A DNA stretch of 64,000 nt, from contig JAFVWY010000009.1 of assembly GCA_017501465.1 (NCBI GenBank), positions 115,092-179,091 on the forward strand, in the 5' to 3' direction. Origin of the DNA: Bacilli bacterium (GTDB lineage Bacteria; Bacillota_I; Bacilli_A; ML615J-28; CAG-313). Shown one piece after another: positions 12,016-60,860 of this stretch (position 1 is the first letter of the stretch; each line of letters opens with the position of its first letter). The notes under the pieces are model-generated. The model searched no databases. It worked only from the letters and a program-made list of their open reading frames with translations, and had not been told where the DNA came from. A program made the translations under genes and the position numbers.

Positions 12016-12952
12016 TAAAAATCATATAGGTACTTTGTATGAATATCACGAGTTAAAACAATATACGACATTTAAAATTGGTGGAATTTGTAGGTATTAT
12101 ATAGAGGTTAGTTCAATAGTAAAATTAAGCTTATTGATTAAATACTTAAAAAAAATTAATTATTTATATTATATTTTGGGAAATGGCTCTAATTTATTAA
12201 TAGATGATTGTTTTTTAGATTGTGTTTTTATAAGTTTAAAAAAGCTTAATAAAATTACAAAATTAGCTGAAAACATATATATGTTAGATGCAGGACTTAA
12301 ACCTAATCTATTAGGAATCAAGCTAGTAAAAGATGGTTTTATTGATGCGATACCATTTTGTTTAATTCCAGGAACAATTGGTGGTTTAACTTATATGAAT
12401 GCATCTTGTTTTAAAAAAAGTATTCAAAATATTGTCAAGTCTGTAATTTGTATGGACCATTTTGGTAATATCATATTCTTAAAAGATTGTCAGTTTAGTT
12501 ACCGAAAAAGTATATTCCAAGAGTTGAACTTAATAATATTAAAGGTAATATTTGAGTTTAAAGAAAAAAAAGAAGATGCCTATTCTACTTTAAAAAAGTA
12601 TCAAAATATTAAAAAAACAACCCAACCAATGTTAGTAAATACTAGTGGTAGTATGTTTATGAATGATTTAAATTATCATGCTTGGGAGCTAATAGATAAA
12701 TTAAAATTAAGAGGTTTTTCAATAAATGATGCTTGTATTAGTATGATTCATACTAACTTTTTTCTTAATAAAGGAAATGCTAAATTCAAAGAAATGATAG
12801 CTTTAATCTATTATGTTAAAACTAAAATATTTTTAGAATTTAATATCAAATTAAAATTAGAAGTAAAAATAATTACTATTCAATCTATTGCCTATTCAAA
12901 GAATAATTTGAGGAATAAGATAGATTGGGAGGGGAATTATGAATCATTTTAA
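11993..12952 (+). CDS. murB: UDP-N-acetylenolpyruvoylglucosamine reductase
   Basis: TTFKIGG and LGNGSNLLIDD FAD-binding motifs. Position after murG. Confidence 0.7.
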   Translation: MMLKDYISKNHIGTLYEYHELKQYTTFKIGGICRYYIEVSSIVKLSLLIKYLKKINYLYYILGNGSNLLIDDCFLDCVFISLKKLNKITKLAENIYMLDAGLKPNLLGIKLVKDGFIDAIPFCLIPGTIGGLTYMNASCFKKSIQNIVKSVICMDHFGNIIFLKDCQFSYRKSIFQELNLIILKVIFEFKEKKEDAYSTLKKYQNIKKTTQPMLVNTSGSMFMNDLNYHAWELIDKLKLRGFSINDACISMIHTNFFLNKGNAKFKEMIALIYYVKTKIFLEFNIKLKLEVKIITIQSIAYSKNNLRNKIDWEGNYESF

Positions 12953-13337
12953 TTATTTTAAAAATTACAAGAATAATAATACTTTAGTTTCTTTAGCTAC
13001 ACCTACAACTGGTTTTAAAAGAGGAAATATGTTTAATAATCTTTATAAACCCTATAGGAATTATTCGGTTAGCGACTTAACATTTAAAACTGATAAAGAA
13101 CGTTTAATGTATGAAATTCAAATGCATTCGTTTGTGGTGAATGATTTAGTTTTATATTTAGATGTTAATCCAACTGATCAAGAAGCTTTAAGAAGTTTTA
13201 AAGAATATAATCAAAAGTATAATTTACTTGTAAATGAGTTTGAACGAAAGTATCATCCTTTATGTATCAATTCAGAACAGTTTAATCAAAACTATTTTGA
13301 ATGGGTTAATAATTGGCCTAAAGGGGTGATGATGTAA
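12939..13337 (+). CDS. cotJB: CotJA-like / CotJB fusion protein
   Basis: N-terminal GNMFNNLYKPY resembles the CotJA core. The C-terminal 85 aa, LMYEIQMHSFVVNDLVLYLDVNPTDQEALRSFKEYNQKYNLLVNEFERKYHPL, match the CotJB domain. Coupled to cotJC. Confidence 0.6.
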   Translation: MNHFNYFKNYKNNNTLVSLATPTTGFKRGNMFNNLYKPYRNYSVSDLTFKTDKERLMYEIQMHSFVVNDLVLYLDVNPTDQEALRSFKEYNQKYNLLVNEFERKYHPLCINSEQFNQNYFEWVNNWPKGVMM

Positions 13338-13897
13338 TGTGGAAATATGAAAAGATTTTAGCATTTCCAATGAACATTAAAAAGAAAGACTTAAGGCTTG
13401 CAAAAGTAATATTAAGTCAATATGGTGGTCCACAAGGTGAATTAGGAGCTGCTTTAAGATATTTAAATCAAAGCTATACTATGCCTGATGATTATGGTAA
13501 AGCATTACTTAAAGATATTGGTACAGAAGAACTATCTCACGTTGAAATGCTTTGTGAAATGGTAGTTCAACTAACAAAAGATGCAACCATTAAGGAAATT
13601 AAAGAAGCTCATTTAGAGGATTACTTTACAGAACATGGTTTAGATTTATATGCACAAAATGCTTCAGGTGTTAGCTTTGATACAAAAGTCTTTTCATCTG
13701 TTGGTGATGTAATTGCAAATATTCATGAAGACATGGCGGCTGAAGAAAAAGCAAGAGCAGTATATGAACATTTAATTGACTTAACCGATGATGAAGAAGT
13801 CTTAAGACCACTACTTTTCTTAAGACAAAGAGAAATTGTTCATTATGCAAGATTTAAAGAATTATTAGAACATTATCAATCAAAAATGAATGAGTAA
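13337..13897 (+). CDS. cotJC: manganese catalase-family protein CotJC
   Basis: 186 aa. LRYLNQSYTMP and EELSHVEML di-metal ligand regions typical of CotJC / Mn-catalase. Confidence 0.8.
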   Translation: MWKYEKILAFPMNIKKKDLRLAKVILSQYGGPQGELGAALRYLNQSYTMPDDYGKALLKDIGTEELSHVEMLCEMVVQLTKDATIKEIKEAHLEDYFTEHGLDLYAQNASGVSFDTKVFSSVGDVIANIHEDMAAEEKARAVYEHLIDLTDDEEVLRPLLFLRQREIVHYARFKELLEHYQSKMNE

Positions 13898-14010
13898 ACT
13901 CATTCATTTTTTCTTTTTAAAAAAATATTTTTTTTATTTATGTGTAAAAAAAACCCATTAGTGTTATAATACGTTTACTAAAGATAGAAAAAAAATAAGT
14001 GGAGGATAAT

Positions 14011-15132
14011 ATGAACAGAACAATTGATGATATGTTAAGTTCTAGCCCAGTTATAAAAGTTGTTGGTGTTGGTGGTGGTGGTTGTAACGCCGTTAACCGT
14101 ATGATTTTAAATGATGTAATTGGTGTAGATTTTGTTGCAATTAATACTGACTGTCAAGCATTAAAAATGTCAAGAGCAGCAACTAAATTACAAATTGGTC
14201 GCCAAATCACTAAAGGATGGGGAGCTGGTGCAGAACCTGAAATTGGCCAAAGAGCTGCTGAAGAATCTGAAGATGAAATTAGAGAAGTTTTAAAAGATGC
14301 TGATATGATCTTTATTACTGCTGGTATGGGTGGAGGAACTGGTACTGGTGCCGCTCATATAGTTGCGAAAATCGCTAAAGAAATGGGAAGTTTAGTTATT
14401 GCTGTTGTTACTAAGCCATTCTCATTTGAAGGTAATAAACGTATGAAAGATGCTCTTATGGGTATCGAAAAGATTCGTCCTCATGTTGACTCACTAGTAA
14501 TTATTCCTAACGATAAACTTTTAGATGGTGGACCTGACGTTACTTATCTAGAAGCTGTTAGAGAAGCTGACAATGTTTTAAGAAGAGCTGTACAAGGTAT
14601 CTCAGAGATTATTACATTACCTGCTATGATTAACGTAGACTTTGCGGATGTAAGACATGTATTAAAAGATAGTGGTACTGCCTTAATGGGTATTGGTGCT
14701 GCTACTGGTCCTAATCGTGCAATTGAAGCTGCAAGACATGCTGTTTGTAGTCCCCTTCTTGAAATTGATATAAATGGTGCAACTGATGCTATTGTACAAA
14801 TTACAAGTGATACTGAAATTAAGATGAAAGAAGTTCAAGATATTGTTGATGAAATTAAAAATGCATCAACTACTGAAATCAATGTTATCTTCGGTACTGG
14901 ATTTAATACAGGTTTAGAAGGCGCAATCGTTGTAACTGTTATTGCAACTGGTTTTGACAAAACACAAAAAGAAAGACAACTTAATGTTTTAGATACTGAA
15001 TCAGAAGCTGAAGTTGTTGGTCTTGGTGGTGGCGAAACTACATCTAATGATCCTGTTGAAGACCCTAGAAATTCAGAAAAAGAACAAATTAGAGGACAAA
15101 TGCCTAAATGGCTAACTGATCGTTTTAAATAA
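14011..15132 (+). CDS. ftsZ: cell division GTPase FtsZ
   Basis: GVGGGGCNAVNRM and GGGTGTG tubulin signature. GGAGG RBS before the ATG at 14011. The 13999 GTG start in the ORF track is an N-terminal over-extension. Confidence 0.95.
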   Translation: MNRTIDDMLSSSPVIKVVGVGGGGCNAVNRMILNDVIGVDFVAINTDCQALKMSRAATKLQIGRQITKGWGAGAEPEIGQRAAEESEDEIREVLKDADMIFITAGMGGGTGTGAAHIVAKIAKEMGSLVIAVVTKPFSFEGNKRMKDALMGIEKIRPHVDSLVIIPNDKLLDGGPDVTYLEAVREADNVLRRAVQGISEIITLPAMINVDFADVRHVLKDSGTALMGIGAATGPNRAIEAARHAVCSPLLEIDINGATDAIVQITSDTEIKMKEVQDIVDEIKNASTTEINVIFGTGFNTGLEGAIVVTVIATGFDKTQKERQLNVLDTESEAEVVGLGGGETTSNDPVEDPRNSEKEQIRGQMPKWLTDRFK

Positions 15133-22214: not shown

Positions 22215-23648
22215 ATGAAAAAAATACTTGTACTATTTATAATGTTGACTTCTATTTTTATGTTAGCATCTTGTGAATTTGGTGGAACAGGAAGTGGTGG
22301 TCAAACTGGCGGTAATAACAAGCCAACAGAATATACTATTACATATGAACTTGATGGCGGTGAGTTTGAAGAAGAAGCTGTTACTAAGTTTACTGATGGT
22401 AGTAAAATAGAATTAATTGAACCTGTTAAAGAAGATCACATTTTTATTGGTTGGTACAATGAAGATGATGAATTAGTATCTAATTTAGCTGGTGTTTATG
22501 AAAATGTCGTTTTATATGCTAAATGGGAATCATTTATCCCTGGTGTTGAATATCAGATTGAATATGTAACTAATGGTGGAGAACTACCAAGTGATACAGA
22601 ATATAAATATACATCTGGTAAGGAATATGTTTTACCAATCCCTAGAAAAGCTAGCTATGAATTTGTTGGTTGGTATGATTATGAAACTGATGAAGAAATG
22701 ACTAAAGTTAGCGCTACAACTAGCGGTGATGTTAAAGTTTATGCAATGTATCGCAAAACTGTTATCGTTAATAATATTACATATCATACTGATGGCGGTG
22801 TATTACCAGAAAATACTAAGTATACTTACACAGAAGGTGTAGGTCAAGCGCTACCTAAACCAACTAAAGATGGTTACTATTTTAGAGGTTGGTATACAAC
22901 TAGTTCATTCGAAAAGGTTGTAACTGCTATTACTGTTAATTATTATGGTGAATTAGAGTTTTATGCTTTATTTGTTGAAGCAACAGTAGAAAATTCTAAT
23001 TTCGCTATTCTTGGCGATAGTATTTCAACATTCTATTCACCAACATCATCTTTTAATAGTTTATTTGGTGGTGAAAATCAATTCTATTATCCAAGATATA
23101 GTGCAACTGTTAATAGTGTCCAAAAGACTTGGTGGTATAAAACAATCGAAGCTATTGGTGGAAAGTTATTCGTTAATAATTCTTACTCTGGTGGAACAGT
23201 TTGTGGTAGCGGTATGAGTGCTGCAATTTCTAATGAAAGACTTGCTAAATTTAACTATAAAGGCCAATCACCAGATGTTATCATTATTTATTTAGGCATT
23301 AACGATGCAGTTGGTAAAACACCAAGAGAAACATTTAAACAAACATATCAAGAAGTAATTAATAAGATTCATAATATGTATCATGATGTTCAAATCTTCA
23401 TATGTAACCTTCCTTATGAAACTTACACAGATGGTGTACATAGAGAACAGTATAATGAGGTTTTATCTGAACTTGCTAGTGAAAATGAATTACCATTAAT
23501 TAATTTTAAAAATGCTTGGTCAAGTAATACTGAGATTAAAAATAATTGGTATTACCTTGGTGATAATATACATCCAAGTGCTAATGGTATGAATATTTTG
23601 GCTCAAATTGCTACTAAAGCTATTAAGGAATTTTACGGTATTGAATAA
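22215..23648 (+). CDS. lipoprotein with Listeria-Bacteroides-type repeat domain and C-terminal SGNH/GDSL hydrolase
   Basis: Signal peptide with lipobox LASC. Three GWY-containing ~70-aa repeats. SGNH blocks FAILGDSISTF, LGINDA, DNIHP. Paralog of the 59076..60860 lipoprotein. Confidence 0.7.
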   Translation: MKKILVLFIMLTSIFMLASCEFGGTGSGGQTGGNNKPTEYTITYELDGGEFEEEAVTKFTDGSKIELIEPVKEDHIFIGWYNEDDELVSNLAGVYENVVLYAKWESFIPGVEYQIEYVTNGGELPSDTEYKYTSGKEYVLPIPRKASYEFVGWYDYETDEEMTKVSATTSGDVKVYAMYRKTVIVNNITYHTDGGVLPENTKYTYTEGVGQALPKPTKDGYYFRGWYTTSSFEKVVTAITVNYYGELEFYALFVEATVENSNFAILGDSISTFYSPTSSFNSLFGGENQFYYPRYSATVNSVQKTWWYKTIEAIGGKLFVNNSYSGGTVCGSGMSAAISNERLAKFNYKGQSPDVIIIYLGINDAVGKTPRETFKQTYQEVINKIHNMYHDVQIFICNLPYETYTDGVHREQYNEVLSELASENELPLINFKNAWSSNTEIKNNWYYLGDNIHPSANGMNILAQIATKAIKEFYGIE

Positions 23649-24536: not shown

Positions 24537-25346
24537 TTATATTTTAAAATAATCTTTTAAAAATAAATAAACCCCTTTTTCTTTATTAGACTTAGTAATA
24601 ACATTAGCATGAGGTAGTAGCTCTTTATGAGAATTCGCCATAGCAACTTTGGTATGTGCTAAGTTAAACATCTCGATGTCGTTGTGACCATCGCCTATTG
24701 CAATTACACACTTAGGATCAATTTTGTAATATTCAATGGCACTTTTCAAACCTTCGCCTTTATTAACATTGATGTTATATACTTCAACAATTTGAAATAA
24801 ATCGTCCTCTCCCCAATATCTACTTCTTAAAATACCATTATATTTTTTATCGATATATTCTTGTAGTTGTTCAACAAATCCATCTTTAACAAATAAGATT
24901 AAACCATTAGGATCATCAGGAAGAGTTTGATCAAGAGAACCAACATGTAAGAATCCGTTATCAACATGTAAGTATGGATGGATGGCTTCATTATAATCTA
25001 AAACATATATATCATCATGGATTTCGGAAAAGACATTAACTAGATTATCACCAATAAAATTAATAATATCTATAATATATTCTTTTTTAACTCTTAAATC
25101 AGTTTTTGGAAAACAATCATCAAAAGGGTTAGAAACTAATGCACCATTATAATTGATAATTGGTGTATTTAATCCAATTGCTTGATGAACAAAAAAACTT
25201 GATCTAAAAGGTCTTCCAGTAGCAATTAAAATAATATGTCCAAGTTCATTTAATTTTTTTAAATATTCAACAGCACATTGTTCGTATTCACCAAAGTTCA
25301 ACATTAATGTACCATCTAAATCAATTATAATAAGATGTTTATCCAT
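24537..25346 (-). CDS. Cof-type HAD-IIB family hydrolase
   Basis: N-terminal IIIDLDGTLM motif I. GDGHNDIEMF motif IV. Confidence 0.75.
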   Translation of the reverse strand: MDKHLIIIDLDGTLMLNFGEYEQCAVEYLKKLNELGHIILIATGRPFRSSFFVHQAIGLNTPIINYNGALVSNPFDDCFPKTDLRVKKEYIIDIINFIGDNLVNVFSEIHDDIYVLDYNEAIHPYLHVDNGFLHVGSLDQTLPDDPNGLILFVKDGFVEQLQEYIDKKYNGILRSRYWGEDDLFQIVEVYNINVNKGEGLKSAIEYYKIDPKCVIAIGDGHNDIEMFNLAHTKVAMANSHKELLPHANVITKSNKEKGVYLFLKDYFKI

Positions 25347-25465
25347 AAGTGTTCTCCTTTTTGTTAATTATATCAAAAAGTTAGTAAGAAAGAAATTATT
25401 TTAATAATTGTTTTACAAATTCTTTTAATTGGTGTAAAATAGATATACAAGAAAGAGAGCTAAAA

Positions 25466-26254
25466 ATGTTTTTAAGTAAAGTAGATGATTTTTTTAACTG
25501 GATCTTTAAAGATTTAAATGGTAAGTTTGATTTTAGAATATTCGTGACTTTATTAATTGGTATCTTATTGGGTATTATAATTACTATTTCGATATATGGT
25601 ATTGTATTATTAATATCTTTAAAACAATCTGAAAAGAAACAAAAAAGCCATATTATTGAATCTAATTTAACTGAAGATGAATTAGAAAAATTAGTAAAAC
25701 AAATAAAGAATGAATTCCTAGATACAACATCTACTTTTACCCCGAGTGAAAAAGTTAAAGTTTTAGGTACTACTTTACTAAATACTATTAAAACAATTGC
25801 TGCATCTTTTTATCCTAACTCTAAGTATCCTTTATTTGAATTAAATATTGAGGAACTATTGGTGTTGTGTCACTATATTAGCAATAGGGTGGAAACTATT
25901 TTTGACAAAAGAGTTTTAAAGCCTTTTAAAACAATGAGTATCAGTCAAATATTTAAAATGTTAGATGAATATAAAAGAGTACAAGAAAATAAAGCGGTTA
26001 AAGGATTTAAAAAGACCTCATCTGCTAGAAATATTGTGTTTACAATATTGAATTATGCTAATCCTGTATATTGGTTTAAAAAATTAATTATTAATGGAAC
26101 TATCAATTCAGCATTAACTAAAATGTGTTTAATAGTAATTGATATTACATCTAGTGAAACAATTAAAGTATATAGTAAAAGAGTTTTCAACAAAGAGTTA
26201 GAACTACTAGATGAAATAGTAGAAAAAGAAATTAATGAAATGGAGGAATTATAA
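25466..26254 (+). CDS. hypothetical single-pass membrane protein, translationally coupled to ftsK
   Basis: One strong TM helix (IFVTLLIGILLGIIITISIYGIVLLISL). Its stop overlaps the ftsK start (ATAATG). No motif recognised. Confidence 0.4.
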   Translation: MFLSKVDDFFNWIFKDLNGKFDFRIFVTLLIGILLGIIITISIYGIVLLISLKQSEKKQKSHIIESNLTEDELEKLVKQIKNEFLDTTSTFTPSEKVKVLGTTLLNTIKTIAASFYPNSKYPLFELNIEELLVLCHYISNRVETIFDKRVLKPFKTMSISQIFKMLDEYKRVQENKAVKGFKKTSSARNIVFTILNYANPVYWFKKLIINGTINSALTKMCLIVIDITSSETIKVYSKRVFNKELELLDEIVEKEINEMEEL

Positions 26255-28362
26255 TGAAAAAGAAAAATCAAGAAATAGTTTTTAATCTTAAGTTTATTGA
26301 TGAGAATTCTAAAGATACTAGGGATGATTTTCCTAATGTGTTAAAACATGTTGATCCAATTACTCCATTAGATAGTTTTCCGATTTGTTATTTTAAAGAT
26401 GAAAAACATGTGGAAAAACCAATAGAAGAAACTATTGTTATTAATGAACCTAATAAATTTGTATCACCAATTATTGGAGAACAAAATAATGATTTAGTAA
26501 GTGGAGAACATAGTAACAGACCTAAAGAAGTTTATGAAAAGTTTATGGGAGATGAAAAAAAGCCCCAAACTATTAGCGAAATTAAAAAGAGTTTTGATTT
26601 ATTAGACTCTAAAGATTATCGAAACATTTTAATTAATGGTGTGGCTCCGGTGGATTATGATGAGTCAACTGGTTATGAATATGAAATAGATGATACATAC
26701 GAAGAGGAAGTTAAAGAAGTAGAAATTCCAGAAGTAAAACATACTAATTATGAGTATTATGTTGAAGAAGATACTAAACCTAAAGAAGAAAATAAATTTG
26801 AAGATATTGAAGAATTCACTTTAGAAGATGATTTGGAAGAAGAAGTTGAATTAGAAGAAGAAGTTATAGAAAAACCGATTAAAAAAGAAGTTGTAATTAA
26901 AGAAGTAGAAAAACCCGCTTATCATAAACCTAGTAAAAGAAGTAAATATGTTGCTCCGCCTTTAAAATTCTTAAAGAAGAATGAAGGTAGAGTTGAGGTT
27001 GATAATGAGTGGGCACTTGAAAAACAAAATGCAATTAATAGAGTATTTAGTGAATTTAATTATGGTGCCAAAGCTGTAGGCTACAAGGTAGGTCCTACTG
27101 TTACATTGTTTTTAATTGATATTGAACCAGGAACAGATGTTGGTAAAATAAATTCCTTCACTAAAACATTACAAATGAGACTATGCGTTAAGAGTTTAAG
27201 AATTCATTCGCCAATTCCTGGAATGGATTGTGCTGGTATTGAAGTGCCTAATGCCAAACGTACAACCGTTTTAGCAGGAACTTTAATTAATAATCCTGAA
27301 TATTTACAAGATGAAAAAAAATTAAAGTTTGCTTTAGGGTTAAATTTAAGTGGCGATATGGTATATGCTGATATTGAAAAGATGCCACATGGATTAATTG
27401 CCGGAGCAACTGGTAGTGGTAAGAGTGTATGTATTAATACTATGATTATTAGTTTAATATATCACAATACTCCAGATGAATTAAGAATGATTATGGTAGA
27501 CCCTAAAATGGTAGAACTATCTATTTATAATGATATTCCTCATCTTGCAATGCCAGTAATTACTGAGGCTAAAAAAGCAGCTCCTGCTTTTAAATGGCTT
27601 TGTGAAGAAATGGATCGTAGATTTATGATCTTCTCTCAATATCATGTCAGAGATATTAGTAAGTTTAATAAATTAATGGAAGCTCAAGGAAACAAGATTT
27701 TCCCTCGTATTGTTTTAATTATAGATGAATTAGCTGACTTAATGTTAGTTGCTGGTAACGAAATTGATGGTTACATTCAACGTTTAGGTGGTAAAGCTAG
27801 AGCAGCGGGTATTCACGTTATTTTAGCAACCCAAAGACCTTCTACTGATGTTATTAAAGGTACAATGAAAAATAATGTGCCTGCCAGAATCGCGTTTGCA
27901 GTTACGAGCCCTGTGGATTCTACTACTATCTTAGACCATGGCGGTGCTGAAAAATTACTTGGTATGGGTGATATGTTGTTCTCTAATGCTCAAGGGGAAG
28001 AACGTGTTCAAGGTGCTTTAGTAACTGATGATGAAATTAGTGATATTGTAGAATTCTTAGTTGAACATAATGAGGTATCATTCTTACTAGATTCTAATCA
28101 ATTACAAGAAAGAATTGTAAGTGAAGAAGTAGAAGAAGGTGACGATGAATTACTTGAAGAAGTTGCTTTATATATGGTAAGAAATAAGAATGGTTCATCC
28201 AATATTATTCAGACAAAATTTGGTGTTTCCTTTAATAGAGCAAAACGAATGTTGTCTAAAATGGAAAAACTAGGTATTTTATCTGAAACAGTGGCTGGTA
28301 AACCTAGAGAAGTTTTAGTAAATGAAGAAGAATTATTAAGAATTCTTGATGAAAATAAGTAG
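26254..28362 (+). CDS. ftsK: FtsK/SpoIIIE-family DNA translocase lacking a membrane domain (SftA-like)
   Basis: Acidic low-complexity linker. Walker A GATGSGKSVCINT. ILATQRPS. C-terminal winged-helix gamma domain. No TM helices are predicted. Confidence 0.85.
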   Translation: MKKKNQEIVFNLKFIDENSKDTRDDFPNVLKHVDPITPLDSFPICYFKDEKHVEKPIEETIVINEPNKFVSPIIGEQNNDLVSGEHSNRPKEVYEKFMGDEKKPQTISEIKKSFDLLDSKDYRNILINGVAPVDYDESTGYEYEIDDTYEEEVKEVEIPEVKHTNYEYYVEEDTKPKEENKFEDIEEFTLEDDLEEEVELEEEVIEKPIKKEVVIKEVEKPAYHKPSKRSKYVAPPLKFLKKNEGRVEVDNEWALEKQNAINRVFSEFNYGAKAVGYKVGPTVTLFLIDIEPGTDVGKINSFTKTLQMRLCVKSLRIHSPIPGMDCAGIEVPNAKRTTVLAGTLINNPEYLQDEKKLKFALGLNLSGDMVYADIEKMPHGLIAGATGSGKSVCINTMIISLIYHNTPDELRMIMVDPKMVELSIYNDIPHLAMPVITEAKKAAPAFKWLCEEMDRRFMIFSQYHVRDISKFNKLMEAQGNKIFPRIVLIIDELADLMLVAGNEIDGYIQRLGGKARAAGIHVILATQRPSTDVIKGTMKNNVPARIAFAVTSPVDSTTILDHGGAEKLLGMGDMLFSNAQGEERVQGALVTDDEISDIVEFLVEHNEVSFLLDSNQLQERIVSEEVEEGDDELLEEVALYMVRNKNGSSNIIQTKFGVSFNRAKRMLSKMEKLGILSETVAGKPREVLVNEEELLRILDENK

Positions 28363-29329
28363 GATCGATATGGAAAATAATGAATTTAAAGAAGAACTTA
28401 ATGAAGAGTTAGTAGAGGATACAAATCTTGAATCTTTAGAAATCTTGCCAACTATAGAAGTTGAATATACAAAAGAGGACATTAAAAAAAGTAAAAGAAG
28501 ATTTTTAGTTTTACTATTATCGTTTTTGATTAGTGTTGTTGTTTATTATATTAGTAAAGCTTTTGATCCTTTTAAAGGAGTCGAAGTTGGGACAAGATTT
28601 CAATCATCTAACTTAGGTTTGATTGTTAATGTTGTCATGATTTGTTCAATTTTTGTTACTATATTTGGAATTATTGTTTGTTTTATTAATCGATTTAAAC
28701 ATAATCTAAAGATCAAAAAGAAACAATTAACTAAGATTTTTGATATATTAGAATGGGTAGTAATTTTTCCTGTTTGTATAGCTGTTGCTAGTTTTTGTTT
28801 TTCATTTATTTTTACTTTAACAGTTGTTGAAGGCGAGTCAATGGAACCCAATTATTTTGATAATGAAGAATTATTTTTACTATATACTAACAACTTTGAT
28901 AGATTTGATGTGGTAGTAATTGATGTTAATAATAAATATGGTTTAACTAATGAAAAATTATTTATCAAAAGAGTAATTGGTTTACCAGGAGAACACATTG
29001 AATATATTGAAGAAGAAGTTAATGGGAAACTTGTAACTAATTTATATGTTAATGGGGAATTTGTTGAAGAAGATTTTTATACAGATTTTCTAAAAAGTAT
29101 TTATTTAACTTATACTCATACAGAAAAGAGTTTTGATACAGAGAAAGTGTATAGTTTAAATGGATTAGAATTAAAGTATGTGGATGGGAAAGTTGTTATA
29201 CCAGATGATTATTATTTAGTTCTTGGTGATAATAGAATTAATAGTACTGATAGTAGAGTTATTGGTTTAGTTCACAAAGATGACATTATTGGTGAAATTA
29301 AATTTAAAGTAAAAAGTCTTATAGATTAA
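28346..29329 (+). CDS. lepB: signal peptidase I with extended three-TM N-terminal region
   Basis: S26 catalytic Ser box EGESMEP. VLGDNRINSTDSR box E. Preceded by about 150 aa carrying three hydrophobic helices. Confidence 0.7.
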   Translation: MMKISRIDMENNEFKEELNEELVEDTNLESLEILPTIEVEYTKEDIKKSKRRFLVLLLSFLISVVVYYISKAFDPFKGVEVGTRFQSSNLGLIVNVVMICSIFVTIFGIIVCFINRFKHNLKIKKKQLTKIFDILEWVVIFPVCIAVASFCFSFIFTLTVVEGESMEPNYFDNEELFLLYTNNFDRFDVVVIDVNNKYGLTNEKLFIKRVIGLPGEHIEYIEEEVNGKLVTNLYVNGEFVEEDFYTDFLKSIYLTYTHTEKSFDTEKVYSLNGLELKYVDGKVVIPDDYYLVLGDNRINSTDSRVIGLVHKDDIIGEIKFKVKSLID

Positions 29330-29342
29330 GAAGGAGGTAAAC

Positions 29343-30182
29343 ATGGTTCAATGGTATCCTGGTCATATGGCCAAGGCATTTAGAGAAATGGATGAAAAAA
29401 TTAAATTTGTTGATTTAGTAATTGTGCTTTTAGATGCAAGAGTACCTGAATCATCTTTAAATCCGGAAGTTGTTAAAAAGTTTCAAAATAAACAAATATT
29501 ATATGTGTTAACAAAAGCTGATAAAGCTGATAGTGAACAAACAAAAAAGTGGTGTAAACATTATGAATCTAATAACGCTATTGTTATTAGCGTAAATTCT
29601 AAAGACTCATCTACTAAAAAAATAGTTATGAAAGCTATTCAAAAAGTTTTAGAAGAAAAAAGAAAAAAAGATGCCTTAAAAGGCTTAAGACCAAGAGCTA
29701 TTAAAGCGATGGTTGTAGGCATTCCTAATGTTGGTAAATCCACACTTATTAATAATTTATCAGGTAAAAAGGTGGCAAGCGTGGGCGATAAACCTGGCGT
29801 AACGAAAGCTCAACAATGGATTAAGCTTAATCAAGATTTAGAACTTTTAGATACACCGGGAGTTTTATGGCCTAAGTTTGAAAGCCCTCATGTTGGACTT
29901 AATCTTGCGTTAACTGGTGCTATTAAAGATGATATTTTAAGACTAGAAGATATAGTTGAATATGGTGTTAAATTATTACATGAATTATATCCTGGGATTT
30001 TAGAAAAACGCTATAATGTTAAAGAAGATTTTATTAATGATTATGCAACACATGTCGCTAAAGAAAAGAAGTTTTATGCTAATGGTGAAATTGATTATAA
30101 CCGAGTATGTATGTTAATTCTTAATGACTTAAGAAATGGTGCCCTTGGTAATATTACTTTAGATAGGATTAATCATGAATAA
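29343..30182 (+). CDS. rbgA: ribosome biogenesis GTPase A (YlqF/RbgA)
   Basis: MVQWYPGHMAKA hallmark. Circularly permuted GTPase motifs. GIPNVGKST. Confidence 0.85.
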   Translation: MVQWYPGHMAKAFREMDEKIKFVDLVIVLLDARVPESSLNPEVVKKFQNKQILYVLTKADKADSEQTKKWCKHYESNNAIVISVNSKDSSTKKIVMKAIQKVLEEKRKKDALKGLRPRAIKAMVVGIPNVGKSTLINNLSGKKVASVGDKPGVTKAQQWIKLNQDLELLDTPGVLWPKFESPHVGLNLALTGAIKDDILRLEDIVEYGVKLLHELYPGILEKRYNVKEDFINDYATHVAKEKKFYANGEIDYNRVCMLILNDLRNGALGNITLDRINHE

Positions 30183-30789
30183 TTTTGAATTTGAAGAAAA
30201 ACTATATCTTGAAGGTTGTAAATACATTGCAGGATGTGATGAGGTAGGAAGAGGCTGTATTGCAGGTCCAGTTTATGCTTGCTGTGTAATTATGAAACCA
30301 ACTAGTAAGATAGAAGGCGTTAATGATTCTAAAAAATTAACTGATAAAAAAAGAAGAGAACTATTACCTAAAATTTTACAAGATGCGGTATGTTATAAAG
30401 TTATTGCGATTGATAATGATGAGATTGACAAAATTAATATTTTAGAGGCTTCTAGAAAAGCAATGGAATTAGCTTTAGAAGGTTTAGAAGTAAAGCCTGA
30501 TTATGTATTAACTGATGCTATGAAGTTACATACTACTATTCCTTATCAAGACATTATTAAAGGTGATCTTAGAAGTTATACAATAGGCTGTGCTTCGATT
30601 ATTGCAAAAGTTTTTAGGGATGATTATATGATTGCGTTATCTAAGGAATTTCCTGGATATGACTGGGATAAGAATAAAGGATATCCAACTAAAAGACATA
30701 AACAATCTTTATATGAATTAGGTGTGACTAAGTATCACAGAAAAAGCTATGATCCCGTTCGAATTTGTTTAGAAAAGTCTAATTTATGA
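30175..30789 (+). CDS. rnhB: ribonuclease HII
   Basis: GCDEVGRGCIAGPV active-site motif. Follows rbgA, as in Bacillus. Confidence 0.85.
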   Translation: MNNFEFEEKLYLEGCKYIAGCDEVGRGCIAGPVYACCVIMKPTSKIEGVNDSKKLTDKKRRELLPKILQDAVCYKVIAIDNDEIDKINILEASRKAMELALEGLEVKPDYVLTDAMKLHTTIPYQDIIKGDLRSYTIGCASIIAKVFRDDYMIALSKEFPGYDWDKNKGYPTKRHKQSLYELGVTKYHRKSYDPVRICLEKSNL

Positions 30790-30971
30790 TATATATATAA
30801 AAGTAAAATCAAAGAATAGATTCTTTGATTTTTTTTCTTTTTGGTTTACAATTTAAATTTTGTTTGATAAAATGAAAAGCACAAAAGTTTCGAAAAAAAT
30901 TAAATTGCGAAAAGTTTATTGCATTAAATTTATAATGCGTGATATAATTAATTTGAAAAGGAATGATATAA

Positions 30972-33083
30972 ATGAAATTACTTATTGTTGAATCTCCATC
31001 AAAGTCTAAAACAATTGAAAATTATTTAGGTCAAGACTATAAAGTTGTTGCCTCTCTTGGTCATATTAGAGATTTAAGAATAAAGGGGAAAGGCGGCTTT
31101 GGTGTTGATGTTGAAAACAACTTTCAACCCGAATATAGCATCTTGCCTGAGAAAAAAGAAGTAGTAGATCAATTGATTGAACTTGCAAATGAGGCAGAAC
31201 ATATATATCTTGCAACCGACCCGGATAGAGAAGGGGAAGCAATTAGTTGGCATTTACAAGAAGTATTAGAACAAGAACCAGAAAAAGTTTCACGAATTGT
31301 TTTTAACGAAATTACAAAAACAGCTGTTACTAATGCGATAAAAAATGATCGTCAAATTGATATGGGTCTAGTTCATTCTCAAGAATCTAGAAGAATTATT
31401 GATAGAATTATTGGCTTTAGATTATCAAGTTTGCTTCAACAAAAATTAGGTTCTAAATCAGCTGGACGTGTTCAATCTGTTGCGTTAAAACTTATTGTTG
31501 ATAGAGAAAAAGAGATTGAGGCTTTCGATAAAGAAGAATATTGGGATGTTTTTTCAATTATAAATAAAGAAGATCAAGAATATAAATTAAAGCTAGTACG
31601 TTTTAATGATGAAAAGATTGAACTTACAAATGAAGAATCAGCAAAAAAAGTATTAAATGATTTACATAAAGCAAACTTTAAAGTTGAATCTATTGAAACT
31701 AAAGAAAGAAAAAGAATCGCAAAAGCACCTTTTATAACAAGTACCCTTCAACAAGATGCTGGTGTTAGATTTAAATATAATGCGAAAAGAACAATGTTAA
31801 TTGCTCAAAAACTATATGAAGGTATTGATGTAGGCAAAGAAAGAGTTGGTTTAATAACTTATATGCGTACTGACTCAGTAAGACTTTCTGATGATTTTAT
31901 TAATGAAGCGAAGAAGTATGTTAAATCTAATTTTGGTGATAAATATTATAAAGGGTATAAAGTAAAAAATAAAAAGAACCAAAAAATTCAAGATGCCCAC
32001 GAAGCGATAAGACCTACATCACTTGAAAGAACACCCGAAAAAATGAAAAAATATTTATCAAGTGATGAATTAAAAATTTATACAATTATTTATCAAAGAG
32101 CATTATCTAGTGTAATGAGTGATGCTTTAGTAGAAGATACAATCGTTACAGTTGATGCTGCTAATTATAAGTTTGAACTTAGTGGTGAAAAAACACTATT
32201 TGATGGCTTCCAAAGAGTCTATAAAGAAATGGTTGAAGATGAAACAGAAATTAGTGGTCTTCCTGACTTTTTACAAGATGAAAAATTAAATGTTATAGAC
32301 GTAAAGAGCGAACAAAAATATACTAATCCTCCATATCGTTATACGGAAGTTAGATTAATTAAGAAGATGGAAGATTTAGGTATTGGACGTCCATCTACTT
32401 ACGCTCTTACAATGGAAACTTTAAGAGTTAGAAGTTATGTTACAATGGATAAGAGAACTTTCGTTCCATCTGAACAAGGTCGTCTTACAAGTGATCAATT
32501 AGATATTTATTTTAAAGATATTATCAATGTTAAATATACTGCTGAAATGGAAAATACTTTAGACTCTATTAGTGAAGGTCATGCAGTATGGTATGAAGAA
32601 ATTAGAAAATTCTATGACACATTTATGCCATTAATAGAAAATGCTAGGGATAATATGATAAAAATTTATCCAAAACCTACCGATGAATTTTGTCCAGAAT
32701 GTGGATTACCATTATTCATTAGAAGGGGTCCATTTGGTGAATTTACTGCTTGTAGTGGTTACCCTCATTGTAAATATATTAAGAAAAAACCTAAACCTGA
32801 ACCAGTTCATACAGGTATTAGTTGTCCGCTTTGTAAAGAAGGCGAACTTGTAGAAAGAATTAATGTACGTGGTAGAACAAAGGGTTCTTTATTTTATGCA
32901 TGTAGTCGATTCCCAGATTGTAGAGCAACTTACTCTGGTCTTCCTAATGGTGAAATTTGTGCTGTTTGTGGTGGACCAATGATTACTGTAAATGATGAAA
33001 TTGTTTGTGGAAATGAAAAGTGTAAAACCAATAAAGAAAGAAGAGCAAAAGAAAGAGAACTTCAAAAAAAGGTAATTTCTTAA
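30972..33083 (+). CDS. topA: DNA topoisomerase I
   Basis: MKLLIVESPSKSKTIENYLG Toprim N-terminus. C-terminal Cys4 zinc ribbons. Confidence 0.9.
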   Translation: MKLLIVESPSKSKTIENYLGQDYKVVASLGHIRDLRIKGKGGFGVDVENNFQPEYSILPEKKEVVDQLIELANEAEHIYLATDPDREGEAISWHLQEVLEQEPEKVSRIVFNEITKTAVTNAIKNDRQIDMGLVHSQESRRIIDRIIGFRLSSLLQQKLGSKSAGRVQSVALKLIVDREKEIEAFDKEEYWDVFSIINKEDQEYKLKLVRFNDEKIELTNEESAKKVLNDLHKANFKVESIETKERKRIAKAPFITSTLQQDAGVRFKYNAKRTMLIAQKLYEGIDVGKERVGLITYMRTDSVRLSDDFINEAKKYVKSNFGDKYYKGYKVKNKKNQKIQDAHEAIRPTSLERTPEKMKKYLSSDELKIYTIIYQRALSSVMSDALVEDTIVTVDAANYKFELSGEKTLFDGFQRVYKEMVEDETEISGLPDFLQDEKLNVIDVKSEQKYTNPPYRYTEVRLIKKMEDLGIGRPSTYALTMETLRVRSYVTMDKRTFVPSEQGRLTSDQLDIYFKDIINVKYTAEMENTLDSISEGHAVWYEEIRKFYDTFMPLIENARDNMIKIYPKPTDEFCPECGLPLFIRRGPFGEFTACSGYPHCKYIKKKPKPEPVHTGISCPLCKEGELVERINVRGRTKGSLFYACSRFPDCRATYSGLPNGEICAVCGGPMITVNDEIVCGNEKCKTNKERRAKERELQKKVIS

Positions 33084-37467: not shown

Positions 37468-38352
37468 TTATTTACCTAGTCTTTTATTTACATTATAAAA
37501 ATAATTAATATCATCTATATTATCATATATATTAATTGAATGATCAACATACTCTAAATATTCTAAAATGTTAATATTTTTTGTTTTGACAATAAGTTTA
37601 TCTTTATCTTCAATTATTTTTTTGAAAACTTTAATTTTATTAGTATTAAAGTAAATCTCTTCAAAATCCAAATAATTTATATCCCCATCATAATTATTAA
37701 TTAAAATAATACCTTTATTAATATCTAAATTTAATAAATACTCATTAATACTAATTGAATCTATAGAAATGATTGAATCGGTTGTATTTTCTAAAGAAGA
37801 TACTTTATATGTCTTATCAATTATTTTTTTATCAAATAATTCATTAGTAATTTTTAAATATTCATCGAAGTTTTTTAAGTTATTAATTTTATTTGTGTTA
37901 TTAAAAGGTTTATTTGTTACAATAAAACGTGATGCATAAATAGTATCATGAGGTGGGATTTTCGAAAAGTGGGCGTATTTTGGTAAATAGTAATAATCAT
38001 AAATATAACGATATAATTCTTCTTCTGTTATATTTTCTTTAGCAACACTTAATAAATAATCAATAAAATCATCATTTAAATAAGCTTTTAATTTTTTTAA
38101 ATATGAACGTTCTTGTTTTTCTTTTCTTGTTAGTTTAACTGGATAATATCTTCTTTTTGCGAATGCATTACATCTTAAGATTCTAAAACCCACTAATATA
38201 GTTGCATAAAAGAAATTAAACTTTTTATAAGTTTCTAAGGCATAGTCAGAACAAGTTGGGTAAAATTTGCAATGTCCTACACCTATTAAAGATTTATTTT
38301 TTTGATATGATTTTATTAATTTAACTGCAAACTTATTTTTACATTTATGCAT
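37468..38352 (-). CDS. yidD: YidD (membrane protein insertion efficiency factor) domain fused to ~220-aa C-terminal extension
   Basis: GHCKFYPTCSDYALETYKKFNFFYATILVGFRILRCNAF matches the YidD hallmark. Followed by an Asn/Ile/Asp-rich domain of unknown function. Start placed at the ATG after GGTGA. The track start is TTG with no RBS. Confidence 0.55.
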   Translation of the reverse strand: MHKCKNKFAVKLIKSYQKNKSLIGVGHCKFYPTCSDYALETYKKFNFFYATILVGFRILRCNAFAKRRYYPVKLTRKEKQERSYLKKLKAYLNDDFIDYLLSVAKENITEEELYRYIYDYYYLPKYAHFSKIPPHDTIYASRFIVTNKPFNNTNKINNLKNFDEYLKITNELFDKKIIDKTYKVSSLENTTDSIISIDSISINEYLLNLDINKGIILINNYDGDINYLDFEEIYFNTNKIKVFKKIIEDKDKLIVKTKNINILEYLEYVDHSINIYDNIDDINYFYNVNKRLGK

Positions 38353-38421
38353 AACATCACCATTTTTAATTATCTCAAAAAAGATAGTATAAATCAAGAA
38401 TTTAAGTTAAAAATATTACTG

Positions 38422-49831: not shown

Positions 49832-49840
49832 GTGAATATT

Positions 49841-50839
49841 ATGGAAAAACAATATGGTCAAATCATTATATATAAGACACCTGATGGCAACACAAAATTA
49901 GAAGTTAAATTTTATGAAGATACTGTTTGGTTATCACAAGAACAACTTGTAGAACTTTACGGGTCTAGTAAATCCAATATTAGTGAACATATTAAACACA
50001 TATTTGAAGAAGGTGAACTAGATGAAAATTCAACTGTTCGGAATTTCCGAACAGTTGCTAGTAACGGAAGAACATATAATATAAAGTATTATAATCTAAA
50101 AATGATTATTGCTATTGGATATAGAGTTAGAAGTAATATCGGAACAAATTTTAGAAAATGGGCTACAACAACTTTAGAAGAATATATAGTTAAAGGATTT
50201 TCTATAAACGATGATTTACTAAAACGTGCAGGTGGCGGAAGATATTTTAAAGAACTACTTGCAAGAATAAGAGATATTAGATCTAGCGAAAGAGTGTTTT
50301 GGCGACAAGTTCTGGATATATTTGCAACATCAATAGATTATGATCCTAAACTTGAATTATCACAAGAGTTTTTTAAAACTGTACAAAACAAAATGCACTG
50401 GGCAACTCATGGTCATACTGCTGCTGAGATAATAGTAGAAAGAGCAAATGCTAAAAGAGATTTTATGGGTTTGACTTCATTTGATGGGGATTACCCAACA
50501 AAAGAAGATGCTGAAATTGCTAAAAACTATTTATCAAAAGATGAACTTGATACACTAAATAGAATTGTTTCATTATATTTAGATTTTGATGAACTTATGG
50601 CAAAAGAAGAAAAGCCAATGACGATGAAGGATTGGATAAAACAGCTTGATTATTTTCTAAAAATGAGTAGAAAAGATATATTGACTGGAAGTGGAACTAT
50701 ATCACATATTAAAGCATTAGAACATGCTAGAAAAGAATATAATGATTTTAGTAAGAGAATTTTAACAAATCCAACTGAAAATGAAAAATTATATTTTGAT
50801 AAATTACAACAGTTAATGTTAATAGATAAAAAAGAATAG
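49841..50839 (+). CDS. RhuM-family (virulence protein RhuM-like) protein
   Basis: IIIYKTPDGNTKLEVKFYEDTVWLSQEQLVELYG and KYYNLKMIIAIGYRVRSNIGTNFRKWATTTLEEYIVKGF match the RhuM family N-terminal and central core. AGGTGA RBS before ATG 49841. Starts 10 nt after the upstream stop. Confidence 0.7.
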   Translation: MEKQYGQIIIYKTPDGNTKLEVKFYEDTVWLSQEQLVELYGSSKSNISEHIKHIFEEGELDENSTVRNFRTVASNGRTYNIKYYNLKMIIAIGYRVRSNIGTNFRKWATTTLEEYIVKGFSINDDLLKRAGGGRYFKELLARIRDIRSSERVFWRQVLDIFATSIDYDPKLELSQEFFKTVQNKMHWATHGHTAAEIIVERANAKRDFMGLTSFDGDYPTKEDAEIAKNYLSKDELDTLNRIVSLYLDFDELMAKEEKPMTMKDWIKQLDYFLKMSRKDILTGSGTISHIKALEHARKEYNDFSKRILTNPTENEKLYFDKLQQLMLIDKKE

Positions 50840-59075: not shown

Positions 59076-60860
59076 ATGAAAAGATTTTTAAAGATATTTG
59101 CTATTTTATTTTGTGCAATGTATTTAGTATCATGTAATACAAGTGGAAATGATGAACCGGTAAAAAAAGCTCATATTACTTACTATATTGATGATGAACT
59201 TGTAAAAGAAGAGTTCCTTAATTTAGATAAAGTAAATGAAAGTATTAAACCAGATATGCCTGAAAAAGTAAAAAAAGGCGAATGGAAACTTACTATAACT
59301 GAAGATGAAAATCATGTAGATTATCGATATAATTTAGAATATACGGTTCATAGATATGTGGTTTATTTTATGGGCCCTGAAGGAGAAGTTTTAAAAAGCA
59401 TGCCAGTTAATCATGGCGAAGCTGCCATTCCACCTACTTTTTCAGATAGAGAAATTGTAACATGGGATAAGGATTTTTCTTGTATAACAAGCTCTACATC
59501 TATTAATGCATCTATCGAATATAAATATTATTATGTAGAATTTTATGATGACGGCCAAAAAGTTGATGTTGGTATTGATCGATATGTTCCAGGTGAAGTT
59601 ACAGAACTTCCTTCATATTCAAAAGAAGGTTACCAATTCCTAGGTTGGTATAATTCTAATATTTCCTTATATACTTACAAAGAAATATCTGCAGATATGA
59701 AAGGTGATTTAAAGTTTGTTTCAAAATTTAATCAATTGGAATATGATGAAGTTGTTTTACCTGATGCCAAATATCATTTTACAGGTATTAATAAAGTAGT
59801 TAGCGATAAGACAGTATATTATCAACCTATTTTGCCATCTGGCGCCCCTAGTGGTGTAAGTAATTACAAATGGACTACAAGTGATCCAAGTGTTGCAACA
59901 GTATCTAATTATTCATCTATTGCAGGATTGAAGTCAGGTTATTGTGTATTAACAGCAACGAACATAAATGATCCTAGTATTACTATTAATTGTTTCATTA
60001 AAGTTACTGACAAAGGTATTGAATATACAACCAGCGAAGAATTAAATAATAGAGAAGTTTATACTATTACATTTAAGGGATTTAATAATGAAATTATTGA
60101 ACAAATCGATGTTCTTGAAGGAGATAGTATATGTTTTCCAATGCCACCAGTTATTGAAGGTTATAAATTTATGGGTTGGGATCAAGAAATTTACACTGTT
60201 ACAGAAGATACTACTATGAGTGCTATTTATATTGAAGGAAATAGCCCATATAATGGTAAAACATTCTCAATTATTGGTGATAGCATTTCTACCTTCCTAA
60301 GCTATATTCCACAAGGATATGCTCATTTTTATCCATATCCTGCAACTGATATATTTAATGTTAATCAAACTTGGTGGATGAGAACTATTAATGCTTTAGG
60401 TGGCAGTTTGTTTATTAATAATTCATATTCGGGTAGTTGTGTATCAACTGGTGGAACAAGTGCTTCTACTAATATAGGCAGACTTAGCAAACTAGTAGTT
60501 GCTAATGATTATGCAGATTATGTAATAATATACATGGGTTCTAATGATTGTGCTGCCCAAATTAATACACCAGTTTTTAAAAAAGCATACAAACAAATGA
60601 TGAATTCAATTTTAGATTTAGCGCCAAATACAAAGATGATACTTTTAACTTTGCCTAACTCTAAACTTTATAGTAATGATTTAAGAAAAGTTTATAATCA
60701 AGCGATTAGAGAACTTGCAGAAGAGTTTAATCAACAATTAATCGAATTAGAAAACTTTGATTTAGTACCTAATTTAATGGATGGAGCACATCCAAATAAT
60801 AACGGTATGATTCAATTATCTAATTATCTTGTAGAAATTTTAAGAAAAAATGAAGCATAA
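59076..60860 (+). CDS. lipoprotein with repeat/Big_2 domains and C-terminal SGNH/GDSL hydrolase (paralog of 22215..23648)
   Basis: Lipobox LVSC. GWY repeat modules. Ig-like Big_2 segment (YKWTTSDPSVATVS). SGNH blocks FSIIGDSISTF, MGSNDC, DGAHP. Confidence 0.7.
   Translation: MKRFLKIFAILFCAMYLVSCNTSGNDEPVKKAHITYYIDDELVKEEFLNLDKVNESIKPDMPEKVKKGEWKLTITEDENHVDYRYNLEYTVHRYVVYFMGPEGEVLKSMPVNHGEAAIPPTFSDREIVTWDKDFSCITSSTSINASIEYKYYYVEFYDDGQKVDVGIDRYVPGEVTELPSYSKEGYQFLGWYNSNISLYTYKEISADMKGDLKFVSKFNQLEYDEVVLPDAKYHFTGINKVVSDKTVYYQPILPSGAPSGVSNYKWTTSDPSVATVSNYSSIAGLKSGYCVLTATNINDPSITINCFIKVTDKGIEYTTSEELNNREVYTITFKGFNNEIIEQIDVLEGDSICFPMPPVIEGYKFMGWDQEIYTVTEDTTMSAIYIEGNSPYNGKTFSIIGDSISTFLSYIPQGYAHFYPYPATDIFNVNQTWWMRTINALGGSLFINNSYSGSCVSTGGTSASTNIGRLSKLVVANDYADYVIIYMGSNDCAAQINTPVFKKAYKQMMNSILDLAPNTKMILLTLPNSKLYSNDLRKVYNQAIRELAEEFNQQLIELENFDLVPNLMDGAHPNNNGMIQLSNYLVEILRKNEA

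Follow-up and report, generated by a model that had tools for sequence, protein, structure and literature searches.

Organization of the A-ftsK locus

The 64-kb stretch of the Bacilli bacterium contig JAFVWY010000009.1 analyzed here, in the following referred to as the window, carries on its plus strand a gene for an FtsK/SpoIIIE-family DNA translocase that is immediately preceded by an open reading frame (ORF) for a membrane protein. We describe this upstream frame, termed ORF A, and its product A together with the translocase, their conservation in related genomes and the putative relation between both proteins. The features of the gene pair are as follows; positions are those of the window, TM stands for transmembrane and AF2 for AlphaFold2.

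25466..26254, plus strand: ORF A, bitopic membrane protein, 262 amino acids (ORF and hydrophobicity)
25538..25621, plus strand: TM helix of ORF A, residues about 25-52, predicted N-out/C-in (Kyte-Doolittle, flanking charge)
26242..26256, plus strand: coupling junction, GGAGGA then TAATG (sequence)
26254..28362, plus strand: ftsK, FtsK/SpoIIIE-family DNA translocase without TM segments, 702 amino acids (Pfam, PDB match, motifs)
26254..26643, plus strand: N-terminal region of FtsK, residues 1-130, predicted disordered, with short motifs (AF2, alignments)
26644..26898, plus strand: acidic linker of FtsK, residues 131-215 (composition)
26956..28320, plus strand: FtsK motor with alpha, beta/RecA-like ATPase and gamma winged helix (Pfam, PDB)

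At the junction of the two genes, ...GGAGGAATTATAATGAAA, the TAA stop codon of ORF A (26252-26254) and the ATG start codon of ftsK (26254-26256) have one base in common, and the Shine-Dalgarno sequence of ftsK, GGAGGA at 26242-26247, lies within ORF A. Judged by this junction, A and FtsK are translationally coupled and encoded on the same mRNA. Two ORFs that meet in different frames and share a single base might also reflect a single gene split by a frameshift or an assembly error, and B. subtilis sftA was once annotated as ytpS plus ytpT. Comparative data refute this scenario. The two-gene form is found in more than 70 independent assemblies with junctions of -1, -4, -8, -20, -23 and +2 to +30 nt, a thioredoxin gene separates both ORFs in 16 loci, and stand-alone A homologues exist in phytoplasmas. 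Together with the Shine-Dalgarno sequence and the ATG in front of ftsK, this leaves a broken single gene a probability close to nil.

The translocase carries an intact motor and no TM segment

Pfam assigns FtsK_alpha (PF17854) to residues 235-333 (E = 7e-20), FtsK_SpoIIIE (PF01580) to residues 350-530 (E = 3e-61) and FtsK_gamma (PF09397) to residues 629-689 (E = 8e-15) of the translocase. Walker A (GATGSGKS at 384), Walker B (VLIIDE at 487) and the ATQRP motif at 525 are intact. The closest solved structures are the motors of E. coli and P. aeruginosa FtsK (2ius/2iut, E = 5e-97), which identifies the motor as homologous to that of canonical FtsK, with the gamma domain present in both. The NCBIfam model PRK10263 matches residues 225-477, with a whole-protein score of 351 against a cutoff of 1566. 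Canonical FtsK and SpoIIIE carry 4-5 TM helices at the N-terminus of the motor polypeptide itself, whereas the window FtsK has none. In a Kyte-Doolittle scan of 19 residues the top window reached 1.75 and fell onto Walker B, and Pfam returned no match to FtsK_4TM, leaving the feature of an N-terminal domain with 4-5 TM helices without a counterpart.

The motor is preceded by the acidic linker, in which aspartate and glutamate make up 41% of the residues and the net charge is -27. Residues 1-130 in front of the linker are almost without secondary structure in the AF2 model (predicted local distance difference test score, pLDDT, 58.8; predicted template modeling score, pTM, 0.15). Alignments of this region revealed motifs that are kept across orders, namely a basic start, D..PFxIPQI, FVSPIFGxxVKD and YDAFR...YGxxYYEF. 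The N-terminus of the window FtsK has itself diverged; the basic start, a PFxIPQI-like motif and FVSPI(F/I)G are present, and the YDAFR...YGxxYYEF motif is missing. Conserved motifs in an N-terminus predicted to be disordered would be typical of docking peptides. A profile search with the N-terminal region yielded 15 short unnamed fragments and no named SftA.

FtsK paralogues that are septal without TM helices have been described in Bacilli, i.e., SftA of B. subtilis and FtsK of S. aureus (PMC10233372, PMC9320952). The first 14 residues of SftA hold an amphipathic helix that attaches the protein to the membrane, and SepF together with FtsA recruits it (PMC9320952). The window FtsK resembles these proteins in its motor, in the absence of TM helices, in a putative targeting region at the N-terminus with a linker behind it, and in its origin from the class Bacilli. 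By its architecture, it is most likely a working chromosomal DNA translocase of the SftA type. It differs from SftA in that an amphipathic helix was not detected at residues 2-15 by computation (hydrophobic moment, µH, 0.26; mean hydrophobicity -0.13; no helix in AF2). The best 14-residue window within residues 1-30 showed a moment of 0.48 but was hydrophilic. As neither a TM segment nor an amphipathic helix was found, our hydrophobicity and hydrophobic-moment calculations detected no membrane attachment of FtsK's own. An upstream-encoded membrane partner of sftA is not mentioned in the literature consulted on SftA (PMC10233372, PMC9320952).

ORF A encodes a bitopic protein of a narrowly distributed family

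The product of ORF A contains a single strong hydrophobic helix with a Kyte-Doolittle mean over 19 residues of 2.91 at residues 25-43 and a core at residues 30-50. Lysine and arginine within 15 residues average 4.14 after the TM helix compared to 0.81 before it, and the C-terminal side of the helix is the more positive one in 82 of 83 family members. According to these flanking charges and the positive-inside rule, A is predicted to adopt an N-out/C-in orientation, which would place its conserved helical domain of ~210 residues in the cytoplasm. A second hydrophobic stretch at residues ~207-225 (Kyte-Doolittle 1.6-2.1) was considered as a further TM helix. This assignment is disfavoured, as the stretch contains conserved polar residues (N, T, K, D, E) and lies inside a 42-residue helix of the model; it is more probably a helix buried within the soluble domain. 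One N-terminal TM helix with N-out/C-in orientation is also found in ZipA and EzrA, whose cytoplasmic domains recruit soluble division proteins, as is proposed below for A. The likeness is one of predicted topology only, and neither sequence nor fold homology of A to ZipA or EzrA was found.

These results agree with an earlier sequence-only reading of this DNA, which had described a 702-residue FtsK with alpha, beta and gamma domains, a long acidic linker and no N-terminal membrane helices, overlapped at its start by a gene for a 262-residue protein with one strong TM helix.

No Pfam or NCBIfam family and no fold match was obtained for A. A Pfam scan of 42 family members at E ≤ 1 gave only noise driven by the TM helix (Myc_target_1, LapA_dom), and no other function was assignable to A. 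The family shares the invariant motifs YPxSKYPxxEL, NPxYWFKK and ETxKxYSK. A word-indexed search found only 25 relatives, while a full profile search with a threshold of E ≤ 1e-3 returned 448 clusters (50% identity); the top 150 among them span 106-355 amino acids. A profile built from a broad alignment gave 217 matches; the best 120 of these are unnamed or labeled "hypothetical protein" and have no Pfam domain. Cultured carriers among the matches listed are Haploplasma axanthum, Acholeplasma equifetale and A. hippikon; the MAG chromosome OY775910.1 is a further complete genome with A. When a single genome was scanned for each species, A was located at 115 loci, of which 80 were kept, in Acholeplasmatales, Izemoplasmatales, Candidatus (Ca.) Phytoplasma and many metagenome-assembled genomes (MAGs) of gut "Bacilli/Mollicutes". 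By these searches, A represents an unannotated family restricted to phytoplasmas, Acholeplasmatales, Izemoplasmatales and MAGs of gut Bacilli.

The order of an anchor followed by a motor, combined with translational coupling, mimics the product of a gene fission, in which a full-length ancestral FtsK would have lost its N-terminal membrane domain to a separate gene, the present ORF A. The protein families argue strongly against such an origin. A has one TM helix instead of 4-5, its conserved helical domain is without counterpart in FtsK, and neither FtsK_4TM nor, apart from the TM-driven noise, any other Pfam domain was matched at E ≤ 1 in the 42 family members scanned. Fusions of A with FtsK were absent among the best 150 of 448 and the best 120 of 217 profile matches, all of which are at most 355 amino acids long, and FtsK retains a conserved N-terminal region of ~130 residues and a linker of its own. 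We therefore reject A as a broken-off piece of FtsK and consider a fission very unlikely. Of the two options that the sequence-only reading had left, a soluble SftA-like translocase or an FtsK whose membrane anchor is split into a separate polypeptide, the former is consistent with the TM-less architecture; a literal split is not supported.

A and ftsK are linked in related genomes

At 73 of 86 related loci, A is directly followed by a gene for an FtsK homologue. Among the remaining 13, seven contigs break off 266-1066 nt past A, and six extend for at least 5.9 kb without an ftsK. The distance from the stop codon of A to the FtsK ORF in the 73 paired loci corresponds to an overlap in 45 cases, 0-30 nt in 11, 92 nt in one and about 300 nt in 16. 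The FtsK downstream of A lacked a TM segment in all 73 loci according to a hydrophobicity scan. TM helices were found neither in the window FtsK nor in its paired relatives, and the family of A is narrow and almost always linked to ftsK rather than widespread and unlinked; neither result contradicts the sequence-only reading.

Sequence identity of A across the paired loci extends down to ~30%, and the loci cover Acholeplasmatales, Izemoplasmatales and gut Bacilli MAGs, including the cultured H. axanthum. The A-ftsK arrangement recurs in dozens of species-level genomes and is, by this distribution, not due to chance. The pair is also kept where the upstream neighbour has changed, as in L001, in which a sulfatase gene is found. 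In 16 loci, mostly of the Izemoplasma type, a gene for a thioredoxin of ~108 amino acids (WCPDC, PF00085) is inserted between A and ftsK, e.g., at 6750-7076 in L025, 6740-7090 in L031 and 6482-6805 in L032, and in 13 more loci; the order of the operon is otherwise kept.

A putative membrane partner of FtsK

The association of both genes and the predicted topology of A suggest a model in which A and ftsK are co-transcribed and translationally coupled, and A would insert N-out/C-in with its ~210-residue helical domain facing the cytoplasm. FtsK would follow with, in this order, ~130 disordered residues containing short docking motifs, the acidic linker and the alpha/beta/gamma motor. A, as the partner on the membrane side, would then hold or recruit the FtsK motor at the membrane or the division site. 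We regard tethering or recruitment of FtsK by A as the most economical model, yet put it forward tentatively, at rather less than an even chance; from association and topology we infer both a physical contact of A with FtsK and a localization at the division site. A more specific version, in which A joins the TM-less FtsK in an obligate two-component DNA translocase of the septum, the domain of A captures the N-terminal motifs of FtsK, and A additionally acts as a general membrane scaffold, is possible but more doubtful still. A role as general scaffold would explain why A is retained in FtsK-poor phytoplasmas.

Alternatively, A and an SftA-like FtsK might be functionally independent. A would then be a housekeeping membrane protein of the clade, the motifs in the N-terminus of FtsK would be recruited by SepF, FtsA or FtsZ, and the adjacency would reflect inheritance of an intact operon in compact genomes, in which overlapping stops and starts are common. 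We consider this explanation nearly equal in probability to tethering by A. Recruitment by SepF and FtsA is documented for SftA (PMC9320952). On the other side, independence has to account for a window FtsK with neither a TM helix nor a detectable amphipathic helix, for a conserved domain of A that is predicted on FtsK's side of the membrane, for a pair that survives both a change of its upstream neighbour and the insertion of a gene between its members, and for the failure to assign another function to A.

Several observations weigh against A as a dedicated partner of FtsK, starting with the lack of A-FtsK fusions among the profile matches described above. The whole block, a divergent HAD gene on the minus strand followed by A-ftsK-lepB-rbgA-rnhB, is syntenic in most loci, and the A-ftsK adjacency is no better kept than the rest. 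The divergent HAD gene lies 5' of A in 64 of the 86 loci. In 63 non-redundant related loci, lepB is found together with A and a full-length FtsK. Downstream, lepB-rbgA-rnhB follows in most loci, H. axanthum included. Since lepB, rbgA, rnhB and HAD are about as conserved as the pair itself, adjacency alone cannot tell function from inheritance within one clade. In the window, the ORFs of rbgA and rnhB also overlap one another, as those of A and ftsK do.

Covariation of both proteins was assessed by a mirror-tree analysis over 64 loci. The correlation of A with the motor (r = 0.89) and with the FtsK N-terminus (r = 0.81) was high, but the partial correlation of A with the N-terminus given the motor was only 0.03 (p = 0.19), i.e., there is no signal between A and the N-terminus of FtsK beyond shared phylogeny. 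Of the synteny and co-evolution that the sequence-only reading had proposed to examine, the former is thus found in 73 of 86 loci, while specific covariation is not.

A further argument for independence comes from the six loci that carry A without ftsK in at least 5.9 kb downstream, namely L030, L043-L045 and two phytoplasmas. In L030, priA follows next after A and ftsK is absent within 5.9 kb. In L043 (3878-4666), L044 and L045 (5923-6774), paralogues of the A family adjoin a phage-integrase gene. Ca. Phytoplasma mali (L064 5929-6711, NC_011047) and Ca. P. prunorum (L075 5986-6768) retain A in the order rsgA-A-rbgA-topA, and ftsK, lepB and rnhB are gone from the block. The phytoplasma A is intact with its motifs kept and evolves under purifying selection, with a ratio of nonsynonymous to synonymous substitution rates (dN/dS) of 0.33 compared to 0.31 for rbgA. 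Phytoplasma is moreover listed as FtsZ-less (review PMC4164004, Table 1). All six of these loci keep the invariant core residues of A. This retention under selection indicates some function that A can serve with no ftsK next to it, and A therefore probably also has an FtsK-independent role, as far as the comparison of sequences can tell. In the literature on FtsK in Acholeplasma, phytoplasmas and Mollicutes, we found no account of an A-ftsK pair and no statement on ftsK elsewhere in phytoplasma genomes.

L043-L045 also carry a 127-amino-acid ORF and unannotated membrane proteins of 530-590 amino acids, and may represent a mobile-element copy.

The FtsK of the window is ordinary in itself, and the possible novelty lies in the two-component arrangement. 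If tethering by A holds true, it would constitute a third way to attach an FtsK motor, beside the built-in TM helices of FtsK and SpoIIIE and the amphipathic helix plus SepF/FtsA of SftA. Targeting of SftA-type motors to septum and membrane has been partly worked out, in B. subtilis only (PMC9320952). A receptor function of A would mean a new anchoring mode for a chromosome translocase in Acholeplasmatales, Izemoplasmatales and many gut Bacilli, would assign a function to a family that is "hypothetical" everywhere, and would enlarge the very small repertoire for division and segregation in wall-less and genome-reduced Bacilli, to which the relatives of the plant-pathogenic phytoplasmas retaining A belong. 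If A is unrelated to FtsK, the locus would instead be a conserved housekeeping operon that happens to include an ordinary SftA-like translocase.

The surrounding operon

The remaining features of the probable operon are listed below.

25412..25440, plus strand: promoter-like site TTTACA-17-TAAAAT (consensus match, in the 119-nt gap 5' of ORF A)
28370..29329, plus strand: lepB, signal peptidase I read from its probable start codon; third of the genes conserved in the block (start context, relatives)
29343..30182, plus strand: rbgA (ylqF)
30175..30789, plus strand: rnhB

The region has a GC content of 26-30% and is densely coding on the plus strand. The promoter-like site in front of ORF A has the top score (10/12) across 25200-31000, and the next equally good match lies at 30845-30873, 5' of topA; both are consensus matches only. 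No terminator-like sites were seen between these two positions in a consensus scan of 25200-31000. A single promoter-like site before A and no terminator-like site before topA would fit an operon A-ftsK-lepB-rbgA-rnhB, as far as consensus matches allow, and by these matches and its conservation the block is probably one operon.

The signal peptidase gene had previously been read as overlapping the 3' end of ftsK. This overlap depends on the earliest possible start, TTG at 28346, and appears to be an artefact of it. The in-frame ATG at 28370, located 7 nt past the stop codon of ftsK and preceded by AGGA 5 nt upstream, is the likely start. In seven relatives lepB starts 2-20 nt past the ftsK stop, and the lepB product of the closest relative begins with MEENKNNE, similar to MENNEF in the window. 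Starting at 28370, the lepB product has an N-terminal extension of ~130 residues, in which ~40 residues form an acidic cytoplasmic tail and three TM helices lie in front of the S26 domain; acidic N-termini are also present in signal peptidase I of relatives. lepB is the third constant member of an A-ftsK-lepB trio.

Other genes of the window

Elsewhere, the window contains ftsW-murG-murB, followed by cotJB-cotJC and then ftsZ, as well as secA, prfB, ftsY, ffh, recG and rnc. Judged by this gene content the organism is walled; it is a low-GC gut bacterium from among the Bacilli related to Acholeplasma and Izemoplasma. A second FtsK was not found within the 64-kb window, in which the ORFs of at least 550 amino acids encode SecA, FtsK, TopA, FakA, RecG, a U32 peptidase and a GDSL lipase.

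cotJB (12939-13337) and a cotJC-like Mn-catalase gene (13337-13897) are located between murB and ftsZ (13999-15132), and ftsZ is without an adjoining ftsA. Spore-coat-type genes within a division and cell-wall cluster (12939-15132) are unusual. On the minus strand, a 309-amino-acid ORF with a TTG start (37468-38397) contains a YidD domain confined to residues 22-87. The usual size of YidD is ~70-90 amino acids, and the ORF is fused or extended, unless the reading frame has been over-called. A RhuM-family 'virulence protein' gene at 49832-50839 (PF13310, E = 2e-106) is a possible sign of a mobile island. Close to it, GC skew reverses at 46-48 kb, a stretch that coincides with the minus-strand U32 peptidase gene. 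Finally, 22215-23648 and 59076-60860 form a paralogous pair with Listeria-Bacteroides repeats and a GDSL lipase/acylhydrolase domain, of which the former carries a lipoprotein-like signal (LASC).

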